Shown: one piece after another, positions 3,833 to 29,314 of the stretch | How positions within the stretch are numbered: the first letter of the stretch is position 1 | Layout: every line of letters starts with the position of its first letter | Source: Candidatus Geohabitans tengchongensis | GTDB taxonomy: Bacteria > Sysuimicrobiota > Sysuimicrobiia > Sysuimicrobiales > Humicultoraceae | Length of the DNA stretch: 53,393 bases | Assembly (NCBI GenBank): GCA_031459625.1 | Contig: JAVKIH010000013.1 | Coordinates: 23,009 to 76,401, forward strand | Direction: 5' to 3' | Translations under genes and position numbers: made by a program | Notes under the pieces: generated by a model | What the model saw: the letters and a program-made list of their open reading frames with translations, nothing else | Databases searched by the model: none | Told to the model about the DNA's origin: nothing

Positions 3833-4825
3833 ATGCGCACGACCCTCTTGCTGATGGCGGGGCTCCTCCTGCTGGCGGGGACCCTGGGACCGGGGGGCCT
3901 GGCCGCGGGCGCGCCCGCGGCGCCCGTGGAGATCCGTCTGGGGCACGGCTTCGCCGCCGAGGAGCAGCTCTGGCTGATGGCGGCGCGCCCCGACATCACC
4001 CCCAACCAGGGGCGCGCCTATACGCTGCGCTTCACCGCCTTCCGGGCCAGCGACGACCGCCTGCGGGCCTACGAGGCGGGCCAGCTCGACGGCGGCACCA
4101 TCCCCGGGCCCACCGCGCTCTTCGCGGCGGAACAGGGGGTGCCGCTGGTGCTGGTGGCCAGCGTCTCCAAGGAGGTACCCGGCGGGAACTGGCACAACAC
4201 CACCTACCTGGCGCTGGCAGACGCGGGGATCCGCTCCGCCCGGGACCTGCGCGGCAAGCGGGTGGGGATCGTGGGCTTCAAGACCGCCACGGAGCTGTGG
4301 GCGCGGGCGGCCATCGACGCGGCCGGGCTCGACCCCAACCGCGATGTCAGCTACGTCATCGTCCCCTTCCCGGCCATGGGCGAGGCCCTGCGGGCACGGC
4401 GCATTGACGTGGGCGCCTTCCCCAACCCCTTCTTCCACGTGGAGCAGACGCGCGGCGGGGTGGTGGTCGTCTTCACCTCCAAGACGGGCGTCCCCTTCGA
4501 GGAGGAACTGATCACCATCTTCCTGCGGCCGGACTTCGTCCGGCGCCACCGCGAGGCCGTGCGGGCCTTCCTGCGCGACTTCGTCGCCGCCACGCGCTGG
4601 TACCTGGCCAACCAGCGGGAGGCGCGGCAGGCGCTGCTGGAGAAGCGCTTCATCACCGTGCCGCCGGAGGTCTACTTCAGCATGCAGGACTGGTACCGGG
4701 ACCCGTCGGCCCGCATCTCCTTCGAGTTCCTGCGCCGGATGCAGGAGCTGCACCTGAAGCTGGGCTGGCAGACGAAGGCGGTCGACGTGCGCCGGCTCGT
4801 CGACACCTCGCTGCTGCCCTTCTGA
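3833..4825 (+). CDS. ABC transporter substrate-binding protein (NMT1/SsuA/TauA type)
   Basis: Signal peptide, IRSARDLRGKRVG, AGLDPNRDV; GGAGG SD. Confidence 0.9.
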   Translation: MRTTLLLMAGLLLLAGTLGPGGLAAGAPAAPVEIRLGHGFAAEEQLWLMAARPDITPNQGRAYTLRFTAFRASDDRLRAYEAGQLDGGTIPGPTALFAAEQGVPLVLVASVSKEVPGGNWHNTTYLALADAGIRSARDLRGKRVGIVGFKTATELWARAAIDAAGLDPNRDVSYVIVPFPAMGEALRARRIDVGAFPNPFFHVEQTRGGVVVVFTSKTGVPFEEELITIFLRPDFVRRHREAVRAFLRDFVAATRWYLANQREARQALLEKRFITVPPEVYFSMQDWYRDPSARISFEFLRRMQELHLKLGWQTKAVDVRRLVDTSLLPF

Positions 4826-4860
4826 CGGAGACGCGGGGAGGCGGCACGCTGCGCGAGACC

Positions 4861-5766
4861 GTGGTGGACGCCGGGCGGGGTGAGCCCCGGGACGCGGCCG
4901 GGGCCGCGCGTCCGCTGGTGGAAGTCGCCGGGCTCTCCAAGGTCTTCACCCGCGGCGACCGGCGCGTCGAGGCGCTGCTCGACCTCTCCCTGGCGGTGCG
5001 CGCCGGGGAGTTCGTCACCGTGGTGGGGCCGAGCGGGTGCGGCAAGTCCACCTTCCTGCACCTGCTGGGCGGCTTCATCCCGCCCAGCGGCGGGGTGATG
5101 CGGGTGAACGGTCAGGAGGTGCGCGGCCCGGGGCCTGACCGCGGGGTGATGTTCCAGGAGCTGGCGCTCTTCCCGTGGCGCACCGTCCTGGGCAACGTGG
5201 TCTGGGGGCTGGAGGCGCAGGGGCGGCCGCGGGCGGAGCGGCTGGCTGTCGCCGAGCGCTACCTCGACCTGGTCGGGCTGCTCCCCTTCAAGGACGCCTA
5301 CCCTGCGGAACTCAGCGGCGGGATGAAGCAACGCGTGGCGTTGGCCCGCACGCTGGCCTTCGACCCGGCGGTGTTGCTGATGGACGAGCCGTTCGGGGCG
5401 CTGGACGCCCAGACGCGCGAGCTGATGCAGGAGGAGCTGCAGCGCATCTGGCTGGCCACGGGCAAGACGGTCCTCTTCGTCACCCATGACGTGGAGGAGG
5501 CGGTCTACCTGGGCGACCGCGTGCTGGTCTTCTCGGCCCGGCCCGGGCGCATCAAGGCCGAGGTGGCGGCACCCTTCCCGCGCCCGCGCAGCCTGGAGGT
5601 CAAGAAGAGCGAAGCCTTCCACGAGGTGCGCAACCGCGTCTGGGACCTGCTGCGGGAGGAGGTGCTGAAGCTGGGCGCGGAGGGAGCCGGCGCCCAGGCA
5701 GAGGGCGCCCGGGCGTCCGGGGAGCGGCCGCGCGGGCGCCCGATGGGGCCGGGAGGAGGGCCGTGA
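4861..5766 (+). CDS. ABC transporter ATP-binding protein (SsuB/TauB type)
   Basis: GPSGCGKST, LSGGMKQR, LLMDEPFGALD, VTHD. Confidence 0.95.
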   Translation: MVDAGRGEPRDAAGAARPLVEVAGLSKVFTRGDRRVEALLDLSLAVRAGEFVTVVGPSGCGKSTFLHLLGGFIPPSGGVMRVNGQEVRGPGPDRGVMFQELALFPWRTVLGNVVWGLEAQGRPRAERLAVAERYLDLVGLLPFKDAYPAELSGGMKQRVALARTLAFDPAVLLMDEPFGALDAQTRELMQEELQRIWLATGKTVLFVTHDVEEAVYLGDRVLVFSARPGRIKAEVAAPFPRPRSLEVKKSEAFHEVRNRVWDLLREEVLKLGAEGAGAQAEGARASGERPRGRPMGPGGGP

Positions 5767-6527
5767 CGCGGGAGGCTCTGGGGCTGGTGGTCGCCGTCCT
5801 GGCCCTGTGGCAGGGGGCGGCCGCCTGGCACGTCCTCCCGCCCTACCTGACCAGCCCGGCCGTGGTGCTGGCGGAGCTGCTCCGCCTGATCCGCAGCGGG
5901 GAGCTGCTCCTCCACAGCGCCGTGAGCCTCTACCGTTCGGCGGCGGGATTCGCGCTGGGGGCCGGGCTGGGGGTGGGATTGGGCTTGCTGGCCGGGGTGT
6001 GGCGGCGTGTGGGCGACGCGGTGGAGCCGCTGGTCTCGCTCACCTATCCCGTCCCCAAGGTGGCCTTCCTGCCGATCCTGCTGGTCTGGTTCGGCATCAG
6101 CGACACCTCCAAGATCCTCCTCATCGCCCTGTCGACCTTCTTCCCCTGCTACATCGCCGCGCTCTACGGGGTGCGGGCGGTGGACCCGCTGTGGGTGTGG
6201 GCGGCGCAGAACATGGGGGCGGGGCGGGGCCGCGTCTTCCTGCGCGTCGTGCTGCCGGGCGCGGCGGTGCACATCTTCAGCGGCCTGCGGGTGGCGCTGG
6301 CGCTGGCCTTCATCCTGATGGTGGCCTCCGAGCTCATCGGCTCGTCGAACCGGCTGGGACTGGGTTTCCTCATCCTGAGCGCGGACGCCGGCGGGCGGTT
6401 CGACCTGATGTTCGCGGCCATCCTGGCCATCGCCGTGCTGGGCTTCGCCGCCGACCGGCTGTTGCTGGAGGTGCGGCGGCGGCTCCTGGCCGGCATCGTG
6501 CTCATGGAGGAGGCGCGTCGTGGCTAG
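5763..6527 (+). CDS. ABC transporter permease (SsuC/TauC type)
   Basis: Hydrophobic helices, AAQNMGA EAA-like loop, GLGFLI; GTGA overlap with the ATPase. Confidence 0.92.
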   Translation: MTREALGLVVAVLALWQGAAAWHVLPPYLTSPAVVLAELLRLIRSGELLLHSAVSLYRSAAGFALGAGLGVGLGLLAGVWRRVGDAVEPLVSLTYPVPKVAFLPILLVWFGISDTSKILLIALSTFFPCYIAALYGVRAVDPLWVWAAQNMGAGRGRVFLRVVLPGAAVHIFSGLRVALALAFILMVASELIGSSNRLGLGFLILSADAGGRFDLMFAAILAIAVLGFAADRLLLEVRRRLLAGIVLMEEARRG

Positions 6528-7368
6528 GACGGCCGATCGCGCGGTGGCGGTCCGCCGCGACGTCGGCGTGGTCGAGGGCTCACGGCGGGTGCTCCCCGGG
6601 GTGGCGGCGGTGGCGGTCCGGGTGCTGCCGGTGGCGGCGGCGCTGCTGGCCTGGGAGGTGGTGGCGCGCTCGGGCCTGGTGAACCCGCGCCTCTTCCCCC
6701 CGCTCGGCGCCATCGCCGCGCACCTGGGGGCGCTGCTCCAGGACCCCCAGCTCGGCCGCCACCTGGGGGCCTCCTTCACCCGCATCGTGGCCGGCTTCGG
6801 CCTGGCCGTCGCCGTGGGCGTGCCGCTGGGAGTGGTGCTGAGCAGCGTGGCGCCGGTCAGCCGGGCGGTGGAGCCGCTCCTCGCCCTCACCTACCCCGTG
6901 CCGCGCCTGGCCCTCTACCCGATCCTCGTCTTCCTCCTGGGGATCGGACACCTCTCCAAGGTGACGCTGGTGGCGCTGGAGTGCCTCTACCCCATCGCCA
7001 TCAGCACCGCCGACGGGCTGCGCCACGTCGACCGCCTCTACCTCTGGTCGGCGCAGACCATGGGGGCGGGGCGGTGGCGCCTCTTCTGGCGGGTGCAGGT
7101 GCCGGCGGCGGCGCCGCAGGTCTTCGCCGGCTTCCGCATCGCCCTGCCCATCGCCTTCATCATCACCGTGCTCACCGAGATGGTCAGCGCCACCGAGGGA
7201 TTGGGCTGGCTCATCCTCTACGCGTCGGCCTCGCTGGTCCAGGCGCGCACCTTCGCGGCGGTGGCCCTGGTGGCGCTCATCGGCTTCGTCATGGACCGGG
7301 CGCTGGCCGCCCTGCGCAACCGGCTGATCTACTGGGAACGGGAAGAAGTCCTTGTGGCCTTGCGGTAA
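6520..7368 (+). CDS. ABC transporter permease (second subunit)
   Basis: Hydrophobic helices, SAQTMGA loop, GLGWLI. Confidence 0.92.
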   Translation: MARTADRAVAVRRDVGVVEGSRRVLPGVAAVAVRVLPVAAALLAWEVVARSGLVNPRLFPPLGAIAAHLGALLQDPQLGRHLGASFTRIVAGFGLAVAVGVPLGVVLSSVAPVSRAVEPLLALTYPVPRLALYPILVFLLGIGHLSKVTLVALECLYPIAISTADGLRHVDRLYLWSAQTMGAGRWRLFWRVQVPAAAPQVFAGFRIALPIAFIITVLTEMVSATEGLGWLILYASASLVQARTFAAVALVALIGFVMDRALAALRNRLIYWEREEVLVALR

Positions 7369-7411
7369 GCCCTGCCCCGCACGTCGCGCAGGCGCTCCTG
7401 CGGGCGCCCCA

Positions 7412-7468
7412 TTGACACCCCCACGGGGAGCCGGGTTACCATCGTTGAAGTTAGAACTGTATGACAGT
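7412..7468 (+). promoter_or_regulatory. putative promoter plus GntR-type operator 2
   Basis: TTGACA (7412-7417), 19-bp spacer, TACCAT (7437-7442); ACTGT-ATG-ACAGT at 7456-7468. Confidence 0.5.
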
Positions 7469-7507
7469 CCGACAATCCACGAGCGGAGGCGTGGGGGGGA
7501 GGGGGTT

Positions 7508-8521
7508 ATGGGCCAGAGGAGCCGCAGTGGAATGGCTGGTCTTCTGATCGTCGGGCTGATCCTGGGGATCGCCGTCCATCCCGCCTCGGCGGGTGCCGAC
7601 CGGGCCGTAACGCTCTATCTGGACTGGAGCATCGACGGTATCCACGCGCCGTTCTTCGTCGCGCTGAACAAGGGCTGGTACACCGAGTCCGGGCTGAGCG
7701 TGGACATCCGTCCCGGGCAGGGATCCAGTGATGCAGTCAAAGTTGTGGGGGCAGGCAGGGCCCAGTTCGGCTTTGCCGATGCCGCCACCATGGTCAAGGG
7801 CGTCGCGTCGGGGGCACCTGTGAAGATGCTTGCGGTCGTCATCCGGAAGACCCCGGCCGTCTTCCTCTGTAACAAGAACTTGAGGATTCGCGGGATTGCC
7901 GACCTCAAGGGCAGGTCTATCGGGGACGCTCCTCAGACCGCCACGGCGACGCTGCTCCCCGCCGTGCTGGAGGCCAACGGCCTGACCATGGCCCAGGTGA
8001 GATTCGTGGCCATGTCGTTTGCGGCGCGTGTACCCTCCGTTCGGGAGGGCAAGATCGACTGTGCCCTGGGGTACCTCCAGGAGTTCGTCAATGTCCTGGA
8101 CCAGTTCGATGTGCTCCCCTACCATGCCATGGGGATCAACTCCTATTCGAGCGGCATCCTGGTGAACACCCGTTATCTCCGGGGTAATGTGGAGACTGTC
8201 CGCAGGTTCGTTGAGGTTTCACTGCGGGGCCTTCAGTGGGCTCTGAGCCATCGCCAGGAAGCCGCCAACATTACCGCGGGCTATACGAAGGATCCGGGGG
8301 CCACTCGCGCCTATTTTGCCGCCGAGCTGGACGTGCTTGCGGCGTACTTCACGGATGACGAGGTGCTCCGCCGGGGCTTGGGGTGGATGAGCGAGGCGCG
8401 GTGGAGGACCACCCAGGAGCTCATGGTCAAGTACGGAGGTCAGCGTGCGCGGGTGCCGTTGAGCCAGCTCTACACCACGGAGTTTCTGCCGCCCAAGCCG
8501 TTTCTGCCGCCCAAGCCGTGA
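7508..8521 (+). CDS. ABC transporter substrate-binding protein (NMT1/THI5 type)
   Basis: Signal peptide, LDW..DGIHAPFFVALNKGWY...GLSVDIRPGQGS, DLKGRSIG. Confidence 0.92.
   Translation: MGQRSRSGMAGLLIVGLILGIAVHPASAGADRAVTLYLDWSIDGIHAPFFVALNKGWYTESGLSVDIRPGQGSSDAVKVVGAGRAQFGFADAATMVKGVASGAPVKMLAVVIRKTPAVFLCNKNLRIRGIADLKGRSIGDAPQTATATLLPAVLEANGLTMAQVRFVAMSFAARVPSVREGKIDCALGYLQEFVNVLDQFDVLPYHAMGINSYSSGILVNTRYLRGNVETVRRFVEVSLRGLQWALSHRQEAANITAGYTKDPGATRAYFAAELDVLAAYFTDDEVLRRGLGWMSEARWRTTQELMVKYGGQRARVPLSQLYTTEFLPPKPFLPPKP
8482..8517 (+). repeat. 18-bp perfect tandem duplication
   Basis: GTTTCTGCCGCCCAAGCC x2, giving FLPPKP-FLPPKP at the protein end. Confidence 0.85.
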
Positions 8522-8527
8522 TCCGGC

Positions 8528-9280
8528 GTGATGTCCCGCATCAAGCCGGTGCTGCTGGTTGCCGGACTCGTGGTACTCTGGGAGCTCTTCTCCCGGCAGG
8601 AGTCCTTTCCTCGTTACGTCCTGCCGCCGCCAACGGTCATAGGCAGTTTCGCTGCCGCCCACTGGAGGATCATTTTCGCCCATGCGCTAGTGACGCTGCG
8701 CGAGGCCCTCATGGGCTTCGGCCTCTCAGCCCTGGTGGGTGTCTGCCTGGGGATCCTCATCGTGCGGTTCAGGCTTCTAGAGGAGACCTTGCTGCCTCTG
8801 CTGATCACGTCCCAGGTCATCCCCACTATCGCGATCGCCCCCTTGCTGGTCATCTGGTTGGGATTTGGCAGTGCCCCGAAGATCGCCGTCGCGTTCCTGG
8901 TGTCTTTTTTCCCCATTGTCGTGAACACAGTGGTGGGGCTCCGGGCGGTAGACGAGGACTTGCTCCACCTGGTCCGCGGCCTTTCAGCGACCCGGTGGCA
9001 GGAGCTGCGAAAGGTGCGTTTCCCGAATGCGCTGCCGTACATCTTCGCGGGACTTCGCGTGGCGATCACGCTGGCGCTGATCGGGAGCGTTGTTGGGGAA
9101 TTTGTGAGCGCCGACCAAGGGTTGGGTTTCCTAATCCTGACTGGTGCAGGTCGGCTCGAGACTGAGCAAATCTTTGTCTCCATTGCGATTCTGGGCTTTG
9201 CGGGCGTGCTCATGTTTCATGGCGTTCGGTGGCTGGAGCGGGTGCTGCTCCCGTGGTTGACCGAGGAGCAGAGGGGTTGA
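8528..9280 (+). CDS. ABC transporter permease
   Basis: VLPPP, PTIAIAPLLVIWLGFG, ALPYIFAGLR, GEFV..GLGFLI. Confidence 0.93.
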   Translation: MMSRIKPVLLVAGLVVLWELFSRQESFPRYVLPPPTVIGSFAAAHWRIIFAHALVTLREALMGFGLSALVGVCLGILIVRFRLLEETLLPLLITSQVIPTIAIAPLLVIWLGFGSAPKIAVAFLVSFFPIVVNTVVGLRAVDEDLLHLVRGLSATRWQELRKVRFPNALPYIFAGLRVAITLALIGSVVGEFVSADQGLGFLILTGAGRLETEQIFVSIAILGFAGVLMFHGVRWLERVLLPWLTEEQRG

Positions 9281-9306
9281 CCCTGCGGGAGGAGGTGAGG
9301 GCGGCT

Positions 9307-9930
9307 GTGAGGAGAGTGGTGACTGATCGCATTCTTCCCGGGAAGGCGTACACCGCCTTCACCCTGACAACAGGTCAGGTGCTGCGCATTGAGGACGTTG
9401 AGGGCAAGCAGGTGGCAGATCTCATCTGTTTCAACCTTCACGACTTCAAAGATCGCCTCAACAACGAGAACACCATGTTGCTCAATCATGTCTGGAATCC
9501 TACGAAGGGTCATGCTTTGTACTCTAACAACTGCAGCAAGATGCTGACCATTGTTGAGGATACCGTGGGTCGAAATTACCCTGGCGGTGCCATGTGCAGT
9601 GAGGAGCTCAACTACCTGCGTTATGGGGTTCGAGGAACGGCGAACTGCCGCGACAATCTGGCCGCGGCTGTGGCCCCCTGGGGAATCGCCAAGGATGAGC
9701 TCCCTGGGGCCTTTGCCCCCTTCATGAATGTCATTCACCACCCTGATGGTCGTGCTGAGATCGCGGAACCGACGTCAAAACCGGGTGATTACATCGAACT
9801 GCGGGCGGAGATGGACTTGCTCGTCGCCGTGTCGGTATGCCCGCAGGAGCTCAATCCGGTCAACGGCTGGAAGTCTACGCCGCTGCGCGTGGTCGTGTTC
9901 GAGCAGGAGGGCGCGAGTACCGGGCCGTGA
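9307..9930 (+). CDS. DUF1989 / urea-carboxylase-associated family protein
   Basis: GQVLRIEDVEGKQVAD, LYSN, C-S, NCRDNL, FMNV, SKPGDYIELRAEMDLLVAVSVCPQ; start uncertain (9277 or 9307). Confidence 0.88.
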   Translation: MRRVVTDRILPGKAYTAFTLTTGQVLRIEDVEGKQVADLICFNLHDFKDRLNNENTMLLNHVWNPTKGHALYSNNCSKMLTIVEDTVGRNYPGGAMCSEELNYLRYGVRGTANCRDNLAAAVAPWGIAKDELPGAFAPFMNVIHHPDGRAEIAEPTSKPGDYIELRAEMDLLVAVSVCPQELNPVNGWKSTPLRVVVFEQEGASTGP

Positions 9931-10727
9931 CGGTGGGCATCGCCCCTGGAAGCCGGCGTCTGGAAGGGCGCAAGGGAATTGCCCTGGAGTTGCGGGATCT
10001 GACCGTCGACTTCGTCCGGCGTGGTTCCGTGTTCCCGGCAGTAAGGGGAGTGACCCTGCGCGTGGTCCCCGGCCAGTTCGTCAGTTTGATCGGGCCCAGC
10101 GGGTGCGGCAAGAGCACGATCCTGAAGGTCATTCTGGGCGTCATTCCGATGACGTCGGGAGAGGTTTGGTTGGATGGAAGGCGGGTCTACGGCCCTCAGC
10201 CGGACATCGGCATCGTCTTCCAGTCGCCCACGTTGCTGGCGTGGCGCTCGGTCGTCGACAATGTGTTGTTGCCCGTCGAGATTCGCGGGTTGCCCATCGT
10301 TCCCTATCGGGATCGGGCGCGCCAGCTCCTGGAGATGGTCGGCCTCGGTGAGTTCGAGCGCCACTGGCCCCGTGAGCTCTCTGGGGGGATGCAACAACGC
10401 GCGGCGATCTGTCGGGCGCTGATTCATGATCCGCCGCTGATCCTCTTCGACGAGCCCTTCAGCGCTCTGGATGACCTCACCAGGGATCAGCTGAACCACG
10501 AGATCTTGAGGATCTGGGAACGTACGGGGAAGACGGTTGTCCTGGTAACGCATAATATCGGCGAGGCCGTCTATATGTCGGACCAGGTGTTCGTCATGAC
10601 ATCGCGACCTGGCCGCCTGGCGGGCAGCGTGGTGATCGAGCTGCCGAGACCTCGGTACTACGAGATGCGGCACACTCCGGAGTTCGTCGCCCATGTCCGG
10701 GAGCTGCGCGCATACCTGCGGACGTGA
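9927..10727 (+). CDS. ABC transporter ATP-binding protein
   Basis: GPSGCGKST, LSGGMQQR, FDEPFSALD, VTHN. Confidence 0.95.
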   Translation: MTVGIAPGSRRLEGRKGIALELRDLTVDFVRRGSVFPAVRGVTLRVVPGQFVSLIGPSGCGKSTILKVILGVIPMTSGEVWLDGRRVYGPQPDIGIVFQSPTLLAWRSVVDNVLLPVEIRGLPIVPYRDRARQLLEMVGLGEFERHWPRELSGGMQQRAAICRALIHDPPLILFDEPFSALDDLTRDQLNHEILRIWERTGKTVVLVTHNIGEAVYMSDQVFVMTSRPGRLAGSVVIELPRPRYYEMRHTPEFVAHVRELRAYLRT

Positions 10728-11461
10728 CGGCCTCCGATCGTAGGATGGGTCGGCCGACCAGACTGGATAGACGAGCCTTCATCGCCCGAGAGCTGGTGTG
10801 GGCCAGCCGCGTGCTGGCGTCAACCGGGTTGGTGGAGGCTTTTGGGCACGTGAGTGCACGAGTGCCGGGGACGGAGATCGTCCTGCTGACGCCTCGGATC
10901 GCTCCAGGAGCGGTGAGCGTGGGGACGTTGGTGGAGATGGACCTGTCGACGGGGCGAGTGCAGGGCGGGCGGCTCCCCCTGGAGTGGCCCGTCCACGCCA
11001 GTGTCTACCGGGCCGACGGAGGGGTCGGCGCCATTTGCCGGATCCACGGGCCTGCAGCCTCCGTGCTCAGCGTGATCGGCGTCCCCGTCCGACCGCTACA
11101 CTACCTGGGGACGATCCTGGGCGGGCCGGCGGCTGTGTATCCGGGCGGGGGGCTGGTGACCACACCACGGCTGGGTCAGCAGGTGGCGCGCGCCCTCCGC
11201 GGCGGGACGGCCGTCCTGCTGCGCGGCAACGGCCAGGTGGTGGTGGGGCGGACACTCCGGGAGGCCTGCGTACGGGCCATTTACCTCGAGGAGGCGGCGC
11301 GGGTGCAGTTGGCGGCGATGCTGGTGGGACGGCCCCGTTTCTACAGTTCACGGGAGGTCAGGGCGTATGCGCAGGTGTGGGAGGACGAGGTGAACCTTGA
11401 TCGGGCCTGGGCCTACTATGTGCGCCGGGCCAGGCTCTGGCCGAGGTGGAACATCAATTGA
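10724..11461 (+). CDS. class II aldolase/adducin family protein
   Basis: FGHVSAR, PLEWPVHASVY, VLLRGNG, RAIYLEEAA. Confidence 0.85.
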   Translation: MTASDRRMGRPTRLDRRAFIARELVWASRVLASTGLVEAFGHVSARVPGTEIVLLTPRIAPGAVSVGTLVEMDLSTGRVQGGRLPLEWPVHASVYRADGGVGAICRIHGPAASVLSVIGVPVRPLHYLGTILGGPAAVYPGGGLVTTPRLGQQVARALRGGTAVLLRGNGQVVVGRTLREACVRAIYLEEAARVQLAAMLVGRPRFYSSREVRAYAQVWEDEVNLDRAWAYYVRRARLWPRWNIN

Positions 11462-14242: not shown

Positions 14243-14261
14243 GGGTCATGGGAGATCGGCG

Positions 14262-15230: not shown

Positions 15231-15233
15231 CCC

Positions 15234-19062: not shown

Positions 19063-19100
19063 CAGGGCACATGGCCCGAGCGGGTGGGCCCGCTGCTTGC

Positions 19101-19161
19101 CCGTCACAACGAAGATATGTCGTTGTCACGGATCGATGAGCACGACGATATGTCGATGTCA
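19101..19161. promoter_or_regulatory. tandem palindromic operator-like sites
   Basis: ACAACGA-N7-TCGTTGT at 19106-19126; GATATGTCG(T/A)TGTCA repeated at 19114 and 19147. Confidence 0.55.
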
Positions 19162-19220
19162 ACCGCGGCCGGGGCACAGGGCGTGTCCCCCCGGTCCGGC
19201 CCCAGCGTGGAGGTGACGAT

Positions 19221-20240: not shown

Positions 20241-20384
20241 GGCTGGATGCCCCAGGGGCGGGGAGCCCACACCGCCGCGGTGCCGACCCGGGGGGGCCGT
20301 CGGGCCTGGGCCACCGGGCTCCCGGGCAGGCAGTGGAGGGGCGGCCGGGCGCCGAAGTAGTGGGGGAGCGAGGAGGGAGCACCT

Positions 20385-21683: not shown

Positions 21684-22180
21684 CCCCGGAGGTGCGCCAG
21701 GAGCTCACGGAGTGGCTCTACCACGAGGCGGAGCTGCTGGACGGGCGCCGCTTCGAGGAGTGGCTGGCGCTGCTGGCCGACGACCTGACCTATGAGATGC
21801 CGGTGCGCCTGACCCGCGAGGCGGGCGGGGGCGAGGAGCTGGCGCGGGAGATGGCGTTCTTCCGGGACGACCGGGAGACGCTGCGGCTGCGTGTGGCCCG
21901 GCTGCGCACCGAGTTCGCCTGGGCGGAGGACCCGCCGTCGCGCACGCGCCACTTCGTGGCCAACGTCCGGGTGCGGCCCACCGACCGGCCGGACGAGGTA
22001 GAGGTGAGGAGCTACCTGCTCGTCTACCGCAGCCGCGGCGACGCGCCGCAGGCCGAGCTGCTCTCGGGGGAGCGGCGCGACCGCTTCCGACGGGAGGGGG
22101 AGACGTGGAAGCTCTGCCGGCGCGAGTTCGTGCCGGACCAGGCCACCCTGGGCCTGCGGAACCTGGCGCTCTTCGTCTGA
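21674..22180 (+). CDS. ring-hydroxylating dioxygenase beta subunit
   Basis: LYHEAELLD..FEEWL, AWAEDPPSRTRH..NV, SGERRD, NLALF. Confidence 0.94.
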   Translation: MDVTPEVRQELTEWLYHEAELLDGRRFEEWLALLADDLTYEMPVRLTREAGGGEELAREMAFFRDDRETLRLRVARLRTEFAWAEDPPSRTRHFVANVRVRPTDRPDEVEVRSYLLVYRSRGDAPQAELLSGERRDRFRREGETWKLCRREFVPDQATLGLRNLALFV

Positions 22181-22232: not shown

Positions 22233-22496
22233 ATGGACGACCATGAGCCGGCGCGTGCGCCGGCGATGGAGCGTGAGCCGGTGATCGAGGTGACCAACGA
22301 GTTCGCGCACGTCGAGGTGCGGCGGGTGTGGACGCGCAACGGGATGCGCCTGGAGATCAGCTCGCCGCGGCTGGGCCACTGCGTCCGGCTGGACGCGCTG
22401 GCGCTGGAGAGCCTCACCTGGCAGCCCATGGAGACCTTCAGCCGCTTCCTGGAGGAGCCGTTCGGCCCGGCGCGGCCGGACGGCCGGCACGGCTGA
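22233..22496 (+). CDS. small conserved protein associated with dioxygenase operons
   Basis: NEFAHVEV..TRNGMRLEISSPR.G..RLD..LESLTWQ; GGAGGAGG SD; resembles the small ORF after phthalate-dioxygenase beta genes in Actinobacteria. Confidence 0.8.
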   Translation: MDDHEPARAPAMEREPVIEVTNEFAHVEVRRVWTRNGMRLEISSPRLGHCVRLDALALESLTWQPMETFSRFLEEPFGPARPDGRHG

Positions 22497-22512: not shown

Positions 22513-23307
22513 GTGACCGGCGCAGCCCCACATCGGCCGGGCCGTCTCGCCGGGAAAGTCGCCCTCATCACCGGCGCGGGCAGGGGGATCGGCCGGGCGG
22601 CGGCAGAGCTCTTCGCCGCCGAAGGCGCCCGGGTGGTCGTGGCCGACCTGGAGGCCGCGGCCGCCCGCGAGGTGGCGGCGGCCATCGCCGACGCCGGCGG
22701 GGAGGCTCTGGCCGTGGGGGCGGACGTGGCCAGTCCCGAGGACAACGCGCGCATGGTGGCGGCGGCGGTGGAGCGGTGGGGCGCGCTGCACGTCTTCTAC
22801 GCCAACGCCGCCATCGTGGACCGCACGCCGGAAGGGGACGTCGGCCTCGAGCGCATCGCCCTGGAGCGCTGGCACCGCATTCTGGCGGTCAACCTCACCG
22901 GCACCTTCCTGGGGTGCCGCGCGGCCATCCCCGAGATCGTCCGCGCGGGCGGCGGTTCGGTGATCCTCACCGGGTCGGTGGGCGCGCTCGTCGCCCACCG
23001 GGCCCACAACCACGCCTACGTCACCTCCAAAACCGGCGTGCTGGGTCTGGCCCGCAACCTGGCCGTGGAGTACGCGCCCAAGGGCGTACGCGTGAACTGC
23101 CTCTGCCCCGGCCAGGTCCGGACGGCCATGATGGCCGACTTCTACGACGACCCCGCACGCCGCCAGCGCTTCATCGACCTGACGCCGATGGCGCGCTTCG
23201 GGGAGGCGGTGGAGGTGGCTCGCGTGGCGCTCTTCCTGGCCTCTGACGAGTCCTCGTTCATGACCGGTGCCGCGGTGGTGGTCGACGGGGGCTGGACGGC
23301 GGTCTGA
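22513..23307 (+). CDS. SDR family oxidoreductase (candidate cis-dihydrodiol dehydrogenase)
   Basis: TGAGRGIG, YVTSK, VRVNCLCPG, VDGG. Confidence 0.92.
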   Translation: MTGAAPHRPGRLAGKVALITGAGRGIGRAAAELFAAEGARVVVADLEAAAAREVAAAIADAGGEALAVGADVASPEDNARMVAAAVERWGALHVFYANAAIVDRTPEGDVGLERIALERWHRILAVNLTGTFLGCRAAIPEIVRAGGGSVILTGSVGALVAHRAHNHAYVTSKTGVLGLARNLAVEYAPKGVRVNCLCPGQVRTAMMADFYDDPARRQRFIDLTPMARFGEAVEVARVALFLASDESSFMTGAAVVVDGGWTAV

Positions 23308-23399: not shown

Positions 23400-23411
23400 A
23401 CTGTATACAGT
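23400..23411. promoter_or_regulatory. putative GntR-type operator 3
   Basis: Perfect palindrome ACTGTATACAGT upstream of the GntR gene. Confidence 0.65.
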
Positions 23412-23468: not shown

Positions 23469-24209
23469 GTGCCGCTGCGCGACCTCCGCCGCCTCACCCG
23501 TCCCCGGACAGGAGCGGGGGGGACCACGCCCCCCGTCCTGGCCGCCGTCCTGCGCGAGGCCATCGTCACCGGCGTCCTGCAGGCCGGCGAGGAACTGAAC
23601 CAGGTCCTCCTGGCCCGCCAGTTCGGCGTGAGCCGCGTGCCGGTGCGCGAGGCCATCCGCCTGCTCGAGGCGGAAGGCCTGGTGGTCTCGCCGCCGCACC
23701 GGCGCAGCGTCGTGAGCGCACTCACCCCGGAGGTGCTGGGGGAGATCTACGAAGTGCGGGTGCGCCTGGAGGGGCTGCTGCTCGGTGCGGCGGTGCCGCG
23801 CCTCGGACCGGAGGACCTGGCCGAGGCGGACGCGCTGGTGGCGGCGATGAGCCGCCTCCGCGACCACCGGGAGTGGCTCCGTCTCAACGACCGCTTCCAC
23901 GACGCCCTCTATCGGGCGGCGGGCAAGCCTTTCGTCAGCGCACTCGTCCGCCAGCTCCGCCAGCAGGTCCAGCGGTACGTGTGGTTGAGCGGCCGGGCGC
24001 TCTACCGGGCGGCGGAGGCCAATGCCGAGCACCGGCGCATTCTGGAAGCCTGTCGCGCCGGGGACGTGCCCCGCGCGCGCCGGGAGCTGCGCCGCCACCT
24101 GCTGGCCACCTACCGGGGGTTGCGCCAGGCGCTCCGGTCGACCCCATCGGGACGGCGCCGGGCGATCTCTCCCGACCGGCTGGGGACGGTCCCACCGGAC
24201 CGGCCATGA
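23469..24209 (+). CDS. GntR family transcriptional regulator (FCD domain)
   Basis: FGVSRVPVREAIRLLEAEGLV; NDRFH, EHRRILEA. Confidence 0.93.
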   Translation: MPLRDLRRLTRPRTGAGGTTPPVLAAVLREAIVTGVLQAGEELNQVLLARQFGVSRVPVREAIRLLEAEGLVVSPPHRRSVVSALTPEVLGEIYEVRVRLEGLLLGAAVPRLGPEDLAEADALVAAMSRLRDHREWLRLNDRFHDALYRAAGKPFVSALVRQLRQQVQRYVWLSGRALYRAAEANAEHRRILEACRAGDVPRARRELRRHLLATYRGLRQALRSTPSGRRRAISPDRLGTVPPDRP

Positions 24210-25081
24210 GGGCCCTGCTGGTGACCCACCTCGCCCACGTGGCCCTCACGGTGCCACACCCCGAGGACGCGGCCCGGTGGTACGCCGAAGTGCTGGGGCT
24301 CGCCATCACCGGTCGACTCCCCGACGGCGGGGTGCGCCTGGCCACAGCCCCGCCCCACGCCGCGGTGGTGGCCCACACTGAGGTGCTCTTGCTTCCCGGC
24401 GCACCTGGTGTCCACCACATCGGTTTCGGTATACCGAATACAGAATCCCTTGCCGCAGCCGCCGCTGCCCTGCGGCGGCAGGACGTGGAGGTCCATGAGG
24501 CGACGGATGGGCCGTGCGGGGTCGGGTGGTGGGTACGCGACCCGGACGGCCACCGGGTGGAGGTGACGGTTCCCCCATCCCCCGTCCCGCGCCCCGGGGG
24601 AGCCGGTGGCCCGGCGACGCTGGTGAAGCTCGGTCACATCACGCAGCGCAGCCCCGACCCTGTGGTGCAGGCGGCGTGGTGGCAGCGCGTTCTGGGGTTC
24701 CGCCTCTCCGACCGCATGGGGGAGACGTTTGCCTGGCTGCGATGCAACCGCGACCACCACACCATCGCGTTCATCCGCGCCCCCCAGCCCGGGACGCACC
24801 ACATCGCCTTCGAGGCCGGGGGGTGGGACGACCTACGCCGCCTCGGTGACCACCTGGCCGCCTGCGGGTGGCGCTTCGAGTTCGGACCAGGGCGGCACGG
24901 CCCCGGGAACAACCTCTTCGCCTACCTCCTCGACCCCTGGGGGCTGCGCTGGGAAGTCTTCTGTGACCTGGTGCGGATCGACGACGAGGAGACCTACACG
25001 CCCGGAGAGTGGGACCCCGGGGCGAGGCTGACCACGGTGAACCGGTGGGGCCCGCAGCCGCCGGAGTCCTTCCTGCGCTAG
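24206..25081 (+). CDS. VOC-family extradiol dioxygenase
   Basis: LAHVAL, LGHIT, DHHTIA, HHIAF, GPGRHGPGNNLFAYLLDPWGLRWE. Confidence 0.88.
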   Translation: MRALLVTHLAHVALTVPHPEDAARWYAEVLGLAITGRLPDGGVRLATAPPHAAVVAHTEVLLLPGAPGVHHIGFGIPNTESLAAAAAALRRQDVEVHEATDGPCGVGWWVRDPDGHRVEVTVPPSPVPRPGGAGGPATLVKLGHITQRSPDPVVQAAWWQRVLGFRLSDRMGETFAWLRCNRDHHTIAFIRAPQPGTHHIAFEAGGWDDLRRLGDHLAACGWRFEFGPGRHGPGNNLFAYLLDPWGLRWEVFCDLVRIDDEETYTPGEWDPGARLTTVNRWGPQPPESFLR

Positions 25082-25083
25082 CC

Positions 25084-25755
25084 ATGCCGCGCGGCGTCCT
25101 CTTCTCGCAGATGGAACCGGCGCCTGAGTGGGAGGTGGCCTTCAACGCCTGGTACGACGAAGAGCACGTGCCCTCGCGCCTGGCGCTCCCCGGGTTCGTG
25201 GCCGCCGCGCGCTATGTCGCCGTCCGGGCCACGCCGAAGTACGCCGTCACCTACCTCCTGGACGACCTCGGCGCCCTGGCCACCCCGGCCTACCGGGCGC
25301 TGAAGCGCGAGCCCGCCCCGCGCACCGCGCAGATGCTGGCCGCCGTGCGCGGCTTCACCCGCTACGTCGGCGAGGAGGTGGCCCGTCTCCACCGGGACAC
25401 CGGTGAGGACGCGGGCGTGCTCGACGCACCCTACCTCTATGCGGTCTTCTTGGCGGTGCCCGAAGCGCGGGAAGCGGAGTTCGAGCGCTGGTACGACCAG
25501 GAGCACGGCCCCCTGCTCCTGCGCCACCCCGCCTGGCGGGCGTTGCGGCGCTACCGTCTGCGCGAGGCGGCGGGCGGGGCGTGGACCCACCTGACCCTCC
25601 ACTTCCTGGACGACCTGGCGGCCCTGGAGTCGCCCGAGCGGGCGGCAGCGCGCGCCACCCCCTGGCGGGAGCGGCTGGCCGCAGAACCCTGGTTCGCGCC
25701 GGATGCCGCCGTCTACGCCCGCCTGCCGCGGCGGTGGGGCGGAGGAGCGCGGTGA
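25084..25755 (+). CDS. tandem EthD/DUF4286-like dimeric alpha-beta barrel protein
   Basis: Two copies of F..WYD.EH.P..L..P...A.RY. Confidence 0.75.
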   Translation: MPRGVLFSQMEPAPEWEVAFNAWYDEEHVPSRLALPGFVAAARYVAVRATPKYAVTYLLDDLGALATPAYRALKREPAPRTAQMLAAVRGFTRYVGEEVARLHRDTGEDAGVLDAPYLYAVFLAVPEAREAEFERWYDQEHGPLLLRHPAWRALRRYRLREAAGGAWTHLTLHFLDDLAALESPERAAARATPWRERLAAEPWFAPDAAVYARLPRRWGGGAR

Positions 25756-26954
25756 CGCTGGCCGGGGGGGCCGTCCCGCCGGCGGCCATCGTGAACATCG
25801 GGACGGTGGTCACGGGGGAGCTCGACCGCCCCCTGCTGGAGGCGGACACCGTCCTGCTGCGCGGGGGGCGCATCGCCGCCGTCGGGACACGCGACCAGGT
25901 GGACGTCGGCGAGGCCGCCGTCGTGGTCGACGCCGCCGGGGCCACGCTGGCTCCGGGGCTGATCGACTCCCACTGCCACGTCGTCATCGGGGACTACACG
26001 CCGCGCCAGAAGACGGTGGACTTCCTGGAGAGCTACGTGCACGGAGGCATCACGCGCTGCATCTCGCCCAGCGAGGTGCACGCCCCGGGACGCCCGCGCG
26101 ACCCGGCGGGCGTGAAGGCCCTCGCCCTGGCGGCCCAGCGCTGCTTCCGCGACTTCCGCCCGGGCGGCATGACGGTGCACGCCGGCTGCCTCATCCTGGA
26201 ACCGGGGCTGGAAGAGCGCGACTTCGCCGAGCTCGCCCGGGAGGGCGTCTGGCTGGCCAAGGCCGGGTTCGGCGCCTTCGCCCGCCCGCGCGACTGCGCG
26301 CCTCTCGTCCGCTGGGCCCAGCGGCACGGGTTCGTGGTGATGTGCCACAGCGGGGGCGCCTCCATCCCCGGCTCCTCCCCAGTGACGGCCGACGACCTGC
26401 TGGCCATGCAGCCGGACGTCAGCGGTCACGTGAACGGCGGCCCGACGGCCATGGCCGACGAGGACGTGGAGCGGGTGATCACAGAGAGCACGATGGCCCT
26501 GCAGGTGGTCCAGGCGGGAAACCTGCGCTCGGCCCTCCACGTGGTGCGCCGTGCCGCGGAGACGGGCAACCTCCACCGCCTGCTCATCGCCAGCGACACG
26601 CCGACGGGGACGGGGGTGATGCCGCTGGCGGTGCTGAAGTCAGCGGCGGAGCTCGTGTCGCTGGCCCCGCTGGCGCCCGCGGTGGCGCTGGCCGCAGCGA
26701 CGGGGAACGTGGGGCGGGTCTACCGGCTGGACGCCGGGATCGTCGCCCCCGGCCGCCCTGCGGACCTGGTGCTCCTCGACGCCCCGCTGGGCGGGCACGG
26801 GCGGGATGCCCTGGACGCGCTCGCCCGCGGCGACATCCCGGCAGTGGCCGCCGTCATCACGCAGGGGGTGCTGCGCGTGCTCGCCAGCCGGAACACGCCC
26901 CCGCCTGTGCGCCCCGTCCGGGTGGTCCGGGGGAGCGCCACGGCGCCCGCGTGA
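25752..26954 (+). CDS. enamidase-like amidohydrolase
   Basis: NIGTVVTG, PGLIDSHCH..GDYTPRQ, H.PGRP.D..G.KALA, HSGGASIPGS, HVNGGPTA, SDTPTGTG, SRNTPP. Confidence 0.88.
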   Translation: MTLAGGAVPPAAIVNIGTVVTGELDRPLLEADTVLLRGGRIAAVGTRDQVDVGEAAVVVDAAGATLAPGLIDSHCHVVIGDYTPRQKTVDFLESYVHGGITRCISPSEVHAPGRPRDPAGVKALALAAQRCFRDFRPGGMTVHAGCLILEPGLEERDFAELAREGVWLAKAGFGAFARPRDCAPLVRWAQRHGFVVMCHSGGASIPGSSPVTADDLLAMQPDVSGHVNGGPTAMADEDVERVITESTMALQVVQAGNLRSALHVVRRAAETGNLHRLLIASDTPTGTGVMPLAVLKSAAELVSLAPLAPAVALAAATGNVGRVYRLDAGIVAPGRPADLVLLDAPLGGHGRDALDALARGDIPAVAAVITQGVLRVLASRNTPPPVRPVRVVRGSATAPA

Positions 26955-26956
26955 GC

Positions 26957-29314
26957 ATGTCCGGGCAGCCGCGCGCGCTGTCGCACGCGTCCCCGCCGGC
27001 CGAGCACCTCCCGCTCCTCACCGGCCGGGGTCGGTTCATCGGCGACCTGGTCCTGCCGGGGATGGTGCACGTGGCCCTCCTGCGCAGCCCGCACGCCCAC
27101 GCCCGCATCGCCCGACTGGATACGCGCGCCGCCGCCCGCGCCCCGGGCGTGGTGGCGGTCGTCACCGCCGCCGACCTGGGCCCGGCCAACCGCCCCCTGC
27201 CGCCACGCGTCCCGCACCCGGCGCTCACCGACCCGCGCGGGCCGCGACCGCTGGCCGAGGGCGTCGTCCGCCACGTGGGCGAGGCCGTGGCCGCCGTGGT
27301 GGCGGAGTCGGCGGCCGCCGCCGCAGACGCCCTGGAGCGCGTCGCGGTCACTTACGAGGCCCTGCCGGCCGCCGCCGACGTGGAGGCGGCCCTGCACCCC
27401 GACGCCCCCCGCGTGCACGCCGACCGCCCGGACAACGTGGCGGCGCGCTGGACGACGGCCGCCGGCGACGTCGGAGCGATCCTGCGGGAGGCCCCGGTCG
27501 TGGTCCGGCTGCGGCTGGAGATCGCCCGTGGCCACGGCCAGCCCCTCGAGCCGCGCGGAGTGGTGGCGGTGTGGGACGAGACGGCACAGGTCCTCACCCT
27601 CTGGTCCTCCACGCAGGCACCCTACGCCGTCCGCGACGTGGTGGCGGCCGCGCTGGGATTGGCGCCCGGGCAGGTCCGGGTGCGCGTCCCCGACGTGGGC
27701 GGCGGCTTCGGCCTCAAGGGCGCACCCTACCCGGAGGAGGTGCTGGTGGCCTGGCTGGCCCGGCACCTGTGCCGGCCGGTGCGCTGGCTGGAAGGGCGGG
27801 CCGAGTCCTTTGTCGCCTCGGTGCAGGACCGCCGGCAGGTGCACGAGGTGGCCGTGGGCGCCGACCGGGAGGGACGGGTGCTGGCGCTCGACCACCGCTT
27901 CCTGCTCGACGTGGGCGCTTATCTGCCCTTCGGCATCCCCGTGGGGGCAAACCTGCAGAGCCACGTGCCCGGTCCCTACGCCATCCCCCACCTGCGCACC
28001 GAGCTGGTGGCCGTCTACACCCACTGCACCCCCACCGGCCCGTGGCGCGGCGCGGGACGGCCTCAGGCCAACTTCGTGGTGGAACGGGCGCTCGACCAGG
28101 TGGCGCGCTGCCTGGGCCTCGATCCCGTCGCGGTGCGCCGCCGCAACCTGATCCGTCCCGCGCAGATGCCCTACGCCACCGGCCTGCGCCTGGCCACCGG
28201 CACGCCCGTGGTCTACGACAGCGGGGACTACCCCGCGCTGCTCGACCGCGTGCTCCAGCTCTTCCGGTACGAGGAGCGCCGCCGCTGGCAGGCGGCGGCA
28301 CGGGCGGCCGGGCGCGCCTGCGGCCTTGGCGTGGTCTGTGGCATCGAGGCGAGCGGCGGTGGCGGGGTGGAGGGCGCGGCGGTCCGCGTGGAGCCCGACG
28401 GCACGGTGCGGGTGGCCGTGGGCAGCCCGGCGCAGGGGCAGGCCCACCGCACGGCGCTCGGCCGCCTGGTGGCCCAGGTCCTGGGTGTCCGCCCCGAGGC
28501 GGTGATCGTCGAGGGCGGCGACACCGCCCTGCTGCCGAAGGGTTCGGGGACCTTCGGGAGCCGCACGCTCGTCGTCGCCGGCACCGCCGCCGCGGAGGCG
28601 GCGCGGGCGGTGCGCAGGCGCGCGCTGGGCCGGGCCGCCCGGCGCCTCCGCGTGGGCCCCGCCGACCTCGAGACCGTCGACGGCGCCATCCGGGTGCGCG
28701 GGGCACCGCAGCGCACCGTCACCTGGGCGACCGTGGCGGCGGACGGGGAGGAACCGCTCCAGGCCACGCACCTCTTCACCCCGCCCGGCCCGGTCTGGAG
28801 CAGCGGCGCGGCGGCGTGTGCGGTGGAGCTCGACCGTGAGACCGGCGAGGTACGGGTCGAGGCGTACGTCTTCGTCCACGACTGCGGCGTGGTCCTCAAC
28901 CCCGACCTGGTGGAGGGGCAGGTGCTGGGAGCGATCGTGAACGGGCTGGGCAACGTCCTCTGCGAGCACCTGGTCTACGACGCGCAGGGGCAGTTGCTCA
29001 CGGCCACGCTCATGGACTACGGCCTCCCCCGGGCGGCGCGGCAGCCGCCGATCCGTCTGGGCCACCAGGAGACGCCCTCGCCCGCCAACCCGCTGGGCGT
29101 CAAGGGGGTAGGGGAGAGCGGCATCATCACCGTCGCCAGCGCCCTGGCCCAGGCGGTGGAGGACGCCGTCGACGACCCGGCCCTGGTCGTGACGGCCGTG
29201 CCCATCCTGCCCTGGCAGGTGCTGCGCTGGTTGGCCGGCCGGTCCGGTCCCTGCGGCCCCGGCGGGGAACGGTCCGGGCCCAGTGCGCCCCCAGGCCCCG
29301 ACTTCGTGCGGTAG
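26957..29314 (+). CDS. xanthine dehydrogenase family molybdopterin-binding large subunit
   Basis: RSPHAHARI, PDVGGGFGLK, WRGAGRPQ, YDSGDY, GTFGSR, KGVGESG. Confidence 0.93.
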   Translation: MSGQPRALSHASPPAEHLPLLTGRGRFIGDLVLPGMVHVALLRSPHAHARIARLDTRAAARAPGVVAVVTAADLGPANRPLPPRVPHPALTDPRGPRPLAEGVVRHVGEAVAAVVAESAAAAADALERVAVTYEALPAAADVEAALHPDAPRVHADRPDNVAARWTTAAGDVGAILREAPVVVRLRLEIARGHGQPLEPRGVVAVWDETAQVLTLWSSTQAPYAVRDVVAAALGLAPGQVRVRVPDVGGGFGLKGAPYPEEVLVAWLARHLCRPVRWLEGRAESFVASVQDRRQVHEVAVGADREGRVLALDHRFLLDVGAYLPFGIPVGANLQSHVPGPYAIPHLRTELVAVYTHCTPTGPWRGAGRPQANFVVERALDQVARCLGLDPVAVRRRNLIRPAQMPYATGLRLATGTPVVYDSGDYPALLDRVLQLFRYEERRRWQAAARAAGRACGLGVVCGIEASGGGGVEGAAVRVEPDGTVRVAVGSPAQGQAHRTALGRLVAQVLGVRPEAVIVEGGDTALLPKGSGTFGSRTLVVAGTAAAEAARAVRRRALGRAARRLRVGPADLETVDGAIRVRGAPQRTVTWATVAADGEEPLQATHLFTPPGPVWSSGAAACAVELDRETGEVRVEAYVFVHDCGVVLNPDLVEGQVLGAIVNGLGNVLCEHLVYDAQGQLLTATLMDYGLPRAARQPPIRLGHQETPSPANPLGVKGVGESGIITVASALAQAVEDAVDDPALVVTAVPILPWQVLRWLAGRSGPCGPGGERSGPSAPPGPDFVR

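Follow-up and report, generated by a model that had tools for sequence, protein, structure and literature searches.

A patchwork catabolic cluster in Candidatus Geohabitans tengchongensis and its conserved core, a candidate system for kynurenate breakdown

The DNA analysed here, a stretch of 53,393 nucleotides from Candidatus Geohabitans tengchongensis that we call the window, sits on contig C5 of a 2.76-Mb genome (73% GC, 94% complete) and carries a catabolic gene cluster from 3833 to 29314. Translation and family scans find 25 genes in the cluster, all on the + strand, and with the start codons chosen here neighbouring genes overlap at 12 of 24 junctions, much as the original prediction for this DNA had it (about 25 same-strand genes, many overlapping). 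The families named in that prediction are all present: Rieske alpha and beta subunits, a short-chain dehydrogenase/reductase (SDR), two vicinal oxygen chelate (VOC) dioxygenases, a protein of the dihydrodipicolinate synthase (DHDPS) fold, a mu-crystallin homologue, hydantoinase A and B, a luciferase-like monooxygenase (LLM), an enamidase, a molybdenum (Mo) enzyme subunit and two NMT1-type ATP-binding cassette (ABC) systems. An 87-aa conserved open reading frame (ORF), a DUF1989 protein, a class II aldolase and an EthD-like protein, unlisted earlier, complete the set. The cluster is a patchwork of three blocks: a conserved 14-gene core, a low-GC insert, and a further group of genes that we call module E. 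It is not one unit, because the insert is absent from close relatives and module E is a separate locus in kin. Gene content and modular structure, like the phylogeny below, are direct observations. With moderate confidence, we consider the conserved core likely to serve the uptake and aerobic breakdown of kynurenate, with a lower route not previously described.

The core opens with sbp1 (3833–4825), which encodes an NMT1/SsuA-type substrate-binding protein, SBP1 (PF13379), likely for the ring substrate, with orthologues of 72–83% identity in kin. An ABC ATPase and two permeases (4861–7368; PF00005, PF00528) follow in an order that is kept in kin. Beyond the insert lie a DHDPS-fold Schiff-base lyase of an uncharacterised family (12189–13205), recognised from a structure model, Foldseek and alignment; an NAD(P)H reductase of the mu-crystallin/ornithine cyclodeaminase (OCD) family (13202–14242; PF02423), a variable member of the core; the extradiol dioxygenase VOC1 (14262–15230; PF00903 twice), a candidate 7,8-dihydroxykynurenate 8,8a-dioxygenase; and an ATP-dependent lactamase pair (15234–19062; PF01968, PF02538) composed of HyuA (15234–17327) and HyuB (17320–19062). 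The core then continues with a Mer-like LLM protein (19221–20240), likely an F420H2-dependent reductase; a Rieske dioxygenase (20385–22180) with alpha (20385–21683) and beta (21680–22180) subunits, placed by its Protein Data Bank (PDB) match and by a tree, and a candidate kynurenate 7,8-dioxygenase; a conserved small, PhtU-like ORF after beta (22233–22496); and an SDR (22513–23307), a candidate dihydrodiol dehydrogenase. Intergenic gaps of 139–161 bp occur 5′ of the LLM and alpha genes, and also 5′ of sbp2 in the insert and gntR2 in module E.

In kin, the core genes are kept at 60–85% identity. Three genomes (G007, G016 and G023) share the order sbp1-ATPase-permeases-GntR-lyase-VOC1-HyuA-HyuB-LLM-alpha-beta-small ORF-SDR at 67–84% identity, and in two of the three a peptide ABC/M20 block precedes alpha. 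Three others (G006, G015 and G022) keep the first half of the core with the OCD gene in place; this gene occupies the same position in locus L159 and is absent there from G007, G016 and G023. HyuAB is 69–83% and the Mer-like LLM protein 81–83% identical in kin. VOC1 stands directly 5′ of the Rieske alpha gene in loci L005, L006 and L009, and SDR orthologues (64–80%) are found near the small ORF in eight of the nine subclade-A loci. Two glycosyltransferase/asparagine synthase-like genes lie between beta and the small ORF in L009 and L005.

The Rieske domain, the beta subunit and the iron ligands H216, H221 and D363 are all retained in the alpha/beta dioxygenase. Alpha has NarAa (2b1x) as its best PDB match and is 39–45% identical to NarAa, BphA1, PhtAa and PadAa; its closest named relatives, at 73–79%, are from Candidatus Fervidifonticultor (Ca. 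Sysuimicrobiota). By sequence the enzyme is placed in an uncharacterised clade: in a quick tree of 60 rows alpha falls within a group of 36 (SH-aLRT 98) that contains no reference enzyme and spans Sysuimicrobiota, Bacillota, Chloroflexota and Actinomycetota. Cultured strains with a member of the clade include Alteribacillus iranensis DSM 23995, Sulfobacillus harzensis DSM 109850 and Amycolatopsis rhabdoformis NCIMB 14900. The Rieske trees were built quickly, without bootstrap, from a sample seeded with the query's own peptides, and the final one leaves out six distant rows and adds five. With 19 clade rows, approximately unbiased (AU) tests reject a grouping of alpha with phthalate enzymes (p 9e-6) and with NarAa (p 4e-46). 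The polar residues N286 and H311 stand in alpha where NarAa has Phe, and K408 is conserved in the clade. In all 20 clade rows displayed, NarAa F293 is replaced by Asn or His and D418 by Lys, and F320 becomes His in the window's subclade; these positions presumably line the substrate pocket. The subclades differ in their transporters, SDRs and VOC enzymes.

Family scans of the 25 genes find no ferredoxin or reductase gene in the cluster, and Reductase_C and Fer4_13 have no match in the window's genome. That genome does hold two stand-alone Rieske ferredoxins and a YumC-type reductase, 49–50% identical to those flanking a cluster of Thermomicrobium roseum; a ferredoxin gene is on contig C46 and the reductase gene on C27.

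The model of the DHDPS-fold lyase has a pLDDT of 96, and its top Foldseek match is PhdJ, at 16% identity. The Schiff-base lysine, K180, is kept in 54 of 54 homologues, and in the same 54 a phenylalanine (Phe147) stands at the usual Tyr position, which we take to be the catalytic Tyr site of the hydratase-aldolases NahE, PhdJ and NarC. The lyase has no match to NarC at E 1e-4, is 24% identical to an aldolase from a mycobacterial polycyclic aromatic hydrocarbon cluster, and forms a clade separate from the hydratase-aldolases in a tree; it is not an orthologue of NahE, PhdJ or NarC. A search of the ESM Atlas returned generic DHDPS clusters only. Homologues, which occur in Bradyrhizobium and Variovorax among others, lie beside OCD and aldehyde dehydrogenase genes in each of four plasmid records examined. 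Ten Pseudomonas lyase loci carry an aldehyde dehydrogenase gene (10), an FAD monooxygenase gene (9) and an OCD gene (at least 6), mostly together with fde-type FAH, epimerase, cyclase and cupin genes that mark flavonoid-type clusters; some flavonoid-type lyase clusters also carry an EthD gene.

In isoflavone catabolism, cleavage of the A ring follows its 7,8-dihydroxylation, and no gene has been assigned to the step that removes the side chain (PMC11069340). Kynurenate is the nitrogen analogue of the isoflavone scaffold and, like daidzein, has no 5-hydroxyl. By this analogy, the lyase is predicted to remove a 2-oxo-butenoate side chain. The OCD and lyase genes are no evidence of a nitrogen ring, since the same pair occurs in flavonoid-type clusters; the mu-crystallin reductases, listed in the original prediction among enzymes acting on N-containing rings, are not specific to them.

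The OCD-family protein finds its best PDB match in pyrroline-2-carboxylate reductase (6t3e). VOC1 has two VOC domains, and its metal-binding His/His/Glu residues align with those of BphC and C23O. HyuA and HyuB match the CapA and CapB models below cut-off. The top models for the LLM protein, also below cut-off, are Mer and F420 LLM, and an F420 ligase is present in the genome; the protein thus resembles an F420 reductase more than an oxygenase. The SDR is 30–37% identical to NarB, BphB and PadB (32% to NarB). The small ORF, which has no Pfam and no PDB match, is 42–63% identical to its counterparts in nar, pht, pad and bph clusters and also lies 3′ of the beta subunit gene in Thermus clusters; one record labels it ‘dihydrodiol dehydrogenase’. 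The families of the benzo-ring-removal module proposed earlier are thus all there, and the label ‘classic’ holds for the SDR and the lyase as an analogy only.

The case for kynurenate as the leading candidate is built on an operon that joins kynA (tryptophan 2,3-dioxygenase), an aminotransferase gene and kynB (an arylformamidase-like cyclase) to the core, and on the distribution of tryptophan dioxygenase. Transamination of kynurenine gives kynurenate (PMC5610271). In locus L103 (G004) the genes HCHL-kynA-aminotransferase-kynB-sbp1-ATPase-permease-permease-voc1-alpha-beta stand on one contig; kynA, the aminotransferase gene and kynB overlap each other, and sbp1 follows a few bases downstream. 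L103 and L009 are identical in these genes and were counted once. Locus L148 (G027) runs kynA-aminotransferase-kynB-sbp1 to its contig end, and the remainder starts another contig. In L006 the aminotransferase gene and kynB, the latter scoring 218.5 against a TIGR03035 cut-off of 223, lie 5′ of sbp1. In the window's genome, contig C3 has kynA next to an orthologue (63%) of the aminotransferase gene, and a 62% paralogue of VOC1 lies about 13 kb away. The region G000:C3 52000–85030 intersperses glycosyltransferase and asparagine synthase-like genes among genes of aromatic catabolism, which encode an HCHL-type hydratase, a VOC protein, a CoA transferase-like protein, kynA and the aminotransferase.

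Among the 33 kin of the family, 13 have the Rieske orthologue (11 at full length, one split, one a 38-aa fragment). Tryptophan dioxygenase is present in 13 of 13 carriers, and the orthologue in none of the 18 kin that have no tryptophan dioxygenase. Genus g5 includes four genomes with both and two with neither. An orthologue of the kynA-linked kynureninase is absent from nine of 14 carriers, the window's genome included, although completeness is just 59% and 84% for two of these nine; all eight genomes of family f5 have kynA and kynureninase without the Rieske orthologue. These counts use the kynA-linked orthologue, as the kynureninase model TIGR01814 does not pick up the divergent enzyme found here. 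Tryptophan dioxygenase also occurs in 19 of 23 genomes reached via other loci of the clade. Counts of the cyclase family, found in 59 of 61 genomes, do not discriminate. Support has thus grown for a benzo-fused N-heterocycle such as a quinoline carboxylate, the class of substrate first proposed, and among the compounds then put forward kynurenate now leads. The original prediction was right on the class of chemistry and wrong in treating the 25 genes as one unit.

The biochemistry of kynurenate degradation in bacteria was established in the early 1960s, and Taniuchi and Hayaishi are said to have described in 1963 how Pseudomonas fluorescens catabolises tryptophan by way of kynurenate (the ‘quinoline’ route). 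Downstream of kynA, kynB and an aminotransferase, the classical route starts with a ring dioxygenase, a dihydrodiol dehydrogenase and an extradiol dioxygenase (EC 1.14.99.2, 1.3.1.18 and 1.13.11.10) and continues through a reductase, a decarboxylase and an aldehyde dehydrogenase. Family scans and the loci in kin show dioxygenase, dehydrogenase and extradiol gene types together in the core, and their match to the three classical activities, compared at the level of activity, supports kynurenate. The lower route is where the two part: unlike the Pseudomonas route, the core of the window has the DHDPS-fold lyase, the OCD protein, an F420-type reductase and HyuAB. The Pseudomonas lower route fits the thiamine pyrophosphate (TPP) enzyme and aldehyde dehydrogenase genes beside the other subclade of the clade.

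A route can be outlined in which every substrate and reaction is deduced from gene neighbours. Kynurenate would be made by tryptophan dioxygenase, formamidase and aminotransferase, whose genes in relatives share an operon with the first genes of the core, and would be imported by the ABC system. The Rieske enzyme, with electron carriers encoded elsewhere, would convert it to the 7,8-cis-dihydrodiol, which the SDR would oxidise to 7,8-dihydroxykynurenate. VOC1 would cut the 8,8a bond to give 4,6-dihydroxypicolinate bearing a 2-oxo-butenoate chain, and the lyase may hydrate this chain and release it in a retro-aldol cleavage, a reaction that the breakdown of 5-deoxy-isoflavones also requires. 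Reduction of the pyridone or of the released fragment might fall to the mu-crystallin and F420 reductases, and HyuAB could open the lactam using ATP. The lower steps, with the reductases, HyuAB and the LLM protein acting on a pyridone, are the least certain. The fuller proposal is a tentative one, possible rather than probable: that the core holds the classical kynurenate ring-cleavage genes in an uncharacterised Rieske clade of four phyla, that a new lower route uses a Tyr-less DHDPS-fold lyase to strip the side chain and F420 and ketimine reductases with an ATP-dependent lactamase to dismantle dihydroxypicolinate, and that the same lyase family fills the side-chain step in isoflavone breakdown.

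Several observations weigh against kynurenate as the substrate. Unrelated Rieske paralogues, taken as a control, also track tryptophan dioxygenase (11 of 15 kin with it, one of 18 without), and the profile therefore reflects in part an aromatic-degrading lifestyle; the kin that make up the profile are, moreover, not independent. The operon link to the kyn genes is confined to one genus and may represent a single event. The window's genome has no clear kynB (best score 57 bits against 223), kynureninase is present in five of 14 carriers, and outside the family four of 23 clade genomes gave no match to tryptophan dioxygenase. In 13 kynA neighbourhoods outside the family, the Rieske module was found in none and a kynureninase-like gene in nine. 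The lower steps cannot be universal, since none of the six genus-g5 genomes, among them those with the kyn operon, has the DHDPS orthologue. In Pseudomonas, the genus of the classical kynurenate degraders, the lyase family occurs in nine of 151 genomes, and neither kynA nor this Rieske type appears in any of ten lyase loci. The aminotransferase is a generic class I/II enzyme, and the kynA proteins score below the TIGR03036 cut-off.

The two other blocks differ from the core in composition and distribution. The insert is 4.8 kb long (about 7359–12192) and consists of sbp2 (7508–8521), a permease gene (8528–9280), a DUF1989 gene (9277–9930), an ATPase gene (9927–10727), a class II aldolase/decarboxylase-like gene (10724–11461) and a GntR gene (11446–12192). 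The GC content at third codon positions (GC3) of these genes is 0.71–0.82, as against 0.87–0.99 elsewhere. Locus L159 skips the insert, the alignment of a metagenome relative (92–94% nucleotide identity) ending at 7372 and resuming at 12171, and contigs of two other studies (runs X5 and X6) join 7358 directly to 12193. An sbp2 orthologue is found in one of the 33 kin, G010, where the five genes from sbp2 to the aldolase form an isolated block, and a GntR orthologue (68–69%) occupies the insert position in G007, G016 and G023. The insert is probably an accessory import block. Run X4, labelled as RNA, covers 1500–21400 evenly in long contigs, insert included, and is therefore uninformative about expression. 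In the G010 locus (L123 651–7112, G010:C252) the five-gene block converges on an operon of a cyclase, a divergent tryptophan dioxygenase and a creatininase-like gene, and the cyclase-tryptophan dioxygenase pair recurs in at least four other kin.

Module E (23469–29314), delimited by family scans, contains gntR2, a GntR gene (23469–24209), and the genes for VOC2 (24206–25081), an EthD-like protein (25084–25755), an enamidase-family hydrolase (25752–26954) and a lone Mo large subunit (26957–29314). In G010, G015 and G023 it forms a separate locus with two further genes, an AA_synth gene and a second DHDPS paralogue, neither of which is present in the window's genome. VOC2 has two VOC domains and aligns with BphC and C23O at the His/His/Glu metal residues. 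The enamidase matches PDB 2vun over residues 12–391 (E 1.7e-123), a full-length similarity to Ena, and is present in three of the 33 kin, as against 13 for the Rieske orthologue. The Mo subunit keeps its cofactor motifs. None of six small and four medium Mo subunits lies on contig C5, and the genes of a three-subunit Mo hydroxylase (large, FAD and 2Fe-2S) are thus not encoded together here. In 21 clade loci outside the window's subclade and Bacillota, the 10 kb on each side hold genes for the lyase in 11, OCD in 13, a VOC2-like protein in 13, a TPP enzyme in 11, the enamidase in three and EthD in two. The nar-type cluster of T. roseum has a lone Mo subunit plus enamidase. Module E is a real companion of such Rieske systems, incomplete here, and is probably what is left of a sister pathway that works with the other subclade of the clade. 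The T. roseum genes lie on a plasmid of this cultured thermophile (L252 8790–26550), in a nar-type operon with the lone Mo subunit, AA_synth, enamidase, a TPP enzyme and VOC.

An operator-like site, ACTGTATACA, lies before sbp1 (3732–3743). Its box, TGTATACA, which we take to be of the GntR/FCD type, is found at three sites in the genome, two of them within the cluster. Before gntR2 stands the perfect palindrome ACTGTATACAGT (23400–23411); in a motif count this gave three matches at two sites, with 0.58 expected and three reached in 4 of 100 shuffles. The rare box common to the upstream regions of sbp1 and gntR2, a variant of which precedes sbp2, hints at joint regulation. It is found upstream of sbp1 in only two of 13 related loci, and a sigma-70 scan of 3500–12500 gave nothing useful. 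An imperfect repeat, CGA(A/C)GATATGTCG, at 19100–19170 upstream of the LLM gene is a possible site for a second regulator.

Among known systems, the nar cluster of Rhodococcus is similar in its alpha-beta-small ORF-SDR order and in the identity of alpha (45%) and beta (51%), and like nar and the JF8 bph cluster the core has no electron carriers beside it. It is unlike nar in the separate clade and polar residues of alpha, in its SDR (32%), in a lyase unrelated to NarC, and in the added ABC importer, lactamases and LLM protein; true NarB and NarC orthologues in T. roseum reach 50–52%. The actinobacterial pht/pad and pat/ptr systems share an alpha of 39–40% identity, the small ORF, a class II aldolase-type gene and the order SBP-ATPase-two permeases; they differ in that tree grouping is rejected, no PatD orthologue is found and the cluster has no ferredoxin or reductase genes. 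The ifc/fde systems, too, act on a benzo ring that is fused to a 4-oxo heterocycle, with 7,8-dihydroxylation, extradiol cleavage and then side-chain loss, and differ in starting with an FAD monooxygenase and opening the pyranone with cupins (PMC11069340). Clusters that resemble ifc/fde in gene content hold DHDPS-fold homologues of 37–41% identity together with OCD. The lum cluster of Nocardioides simplex likewise directs a combination of Rieske and extradiol dioxygenases, Mo hydroxylase, amidases and ABC proteins at a benzo-fused N-heterocycle; by its published description, the window is without the P450 LumU, the two-subunit TPP decarboxylase, the fused 140-kDa xanthine oxidase LumJ and a ferredoxin/reductase (PMC12746152). 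An assignment to lumichrome was rejected, as types corresponding to LumU, LumK/L, fused LumJ and LumA/B, as given there, are all missing among the 25 genes (PMC12746152).

Of the other explanations, the one to be taken most seriously is that the core applies the same ring-removal logic to a different benzo-fused N-heterocycle, such as xanthurenate, quinaldate, 4-hydroxy- or 2,4-dihydroxyquinoline, quinazolinone, or an indole acid from the aminotransferase. The lactamases and F420-type reductase conserved in the core would suit such a compound, the aminotransferase has aspartate and aromatic aminotransferases as its best PDB matches, and the differing transporters, SDRs and VOC enzymes of the subclades suggest more than one substrate. 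We nevertheless regard this as unlikely, given that the kynA and kynB genes flanking the aminotransferase gene point to kynurenine as its substrate. It is improbable that the core degrades an oxygen heterocycle or a carbocyclic acid (chromone, coumarin, naphthoate) with the nitrogen-handling genes as passengers: HyuAB is in operon order with VOC1 in at least six kin genomes, the kyn genes precede the importer, and family scans find no cupin/FAH flavonoid lower pathway in the cluster, whereas the occurrence of the DHDPS-OCD-aldehyde dehydrogenase set in flavonoid-type clusters, some with EthD, and naphthalene dioxygenase as the nearest solved enzyme would favour it.

A single substrate for all 25 genes, with the Mo subunit and class II decarboxylase oxidising and decarboxylating a pyridine aldehyde left by the lyase, seems very improbable. 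The rare box before sbp1 and gntR2 and its variant before sbp2 would be explained, as would the enamidase, EthD, VOC2, OCD and DHDPS genes near same-clade Rieske genes in Actinomycetota (2 to 13 of 21 loci each) and the lone Mo subunit with enamidase in the T. roseum nar-type cluster. The insert is absent from close relatives, however; module E in kin is separate, with its own DHDPS paralogue and two genes that are lost here; and the enamidase is much rarer in kin than the Rieske orthologue (3 against 13 of 33). An ordinary phthalate or naphthalene system, with the other catabolic genes clustered around it by chance, can all but be discounted. It would draw on the 39–45% identity of alpha to PhtAa, PadAa and NarAa, on a small ORF resembling PhtU and a class II aldolase resembling PhtC, and on an ABC order that is that of patDABC. 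Yet the AU tests reject both groupings (p 9e-6 and 4e-46), SBP1 has no match to PatD, the SDR and DHDPS proteins are not orthologues of NarB and NarC, and the aldolase is only 30% identical to PhtC and located in the insert. The dioxygenase is thus not a plain phthalate enzyme, an outcome that had been named beforehand as counting against the original prediction.

Other loci and regions deserve brief mention. Bacillota members of the Rieske clade (L011, L018, L037) stand beside VOC, cupin, hydrolase, TPP enzyme, aldehyde dehydrogenase and aspartate dehydrogenase genes, a third type of lower pathway. In family f5, hot-spring-order genomes carry Rieske enzymes that are sister to actinobacterial phthalate 3,4-dioxygenases (L084–L087). 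At G000:C26 14129–24577 lie a Rieske monooxygenase-like gene, a TPP enzyme gene 56% identical to the clade-linked family, a class II aldolase gene and pca-like genes. Within the window, the stretch 33941–43001 brings an RNase H-like gene, an HRQ1/MrfA-type helicase and a 1451-aa Lhr helicase close together, and two type I-U (I-G) CRISPR-associated genes of lower GC content, Cas_GSU0053 and Cas_GSU0054, lie at the contig end (50524–53389, + strand).

Growth of Acinetobacter baumannii on kynurenic acid is recorded in a review (PMC10732645). Neither this cluster nor genes for cleaving the kynurenate ring are described in the literature searched, although most subscription journals lie outside that search and there may be an earlier report. 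The division into modules is useful by itself, in that the cluster as reported includes a variable insert of about 5 kb and a separate module of about 6 kb. With a named gene set, the question of kynurenate becomes directly testable, and the substrate is commercially available. If kynurenate is indeed the substrate of the core, the finding would annotate a Rieske clade of four phyla, would nominate an enzyme family for the open side-chain step of isoflavone breakdown, and would give kynurenine a fate in genomes without kynureninase.

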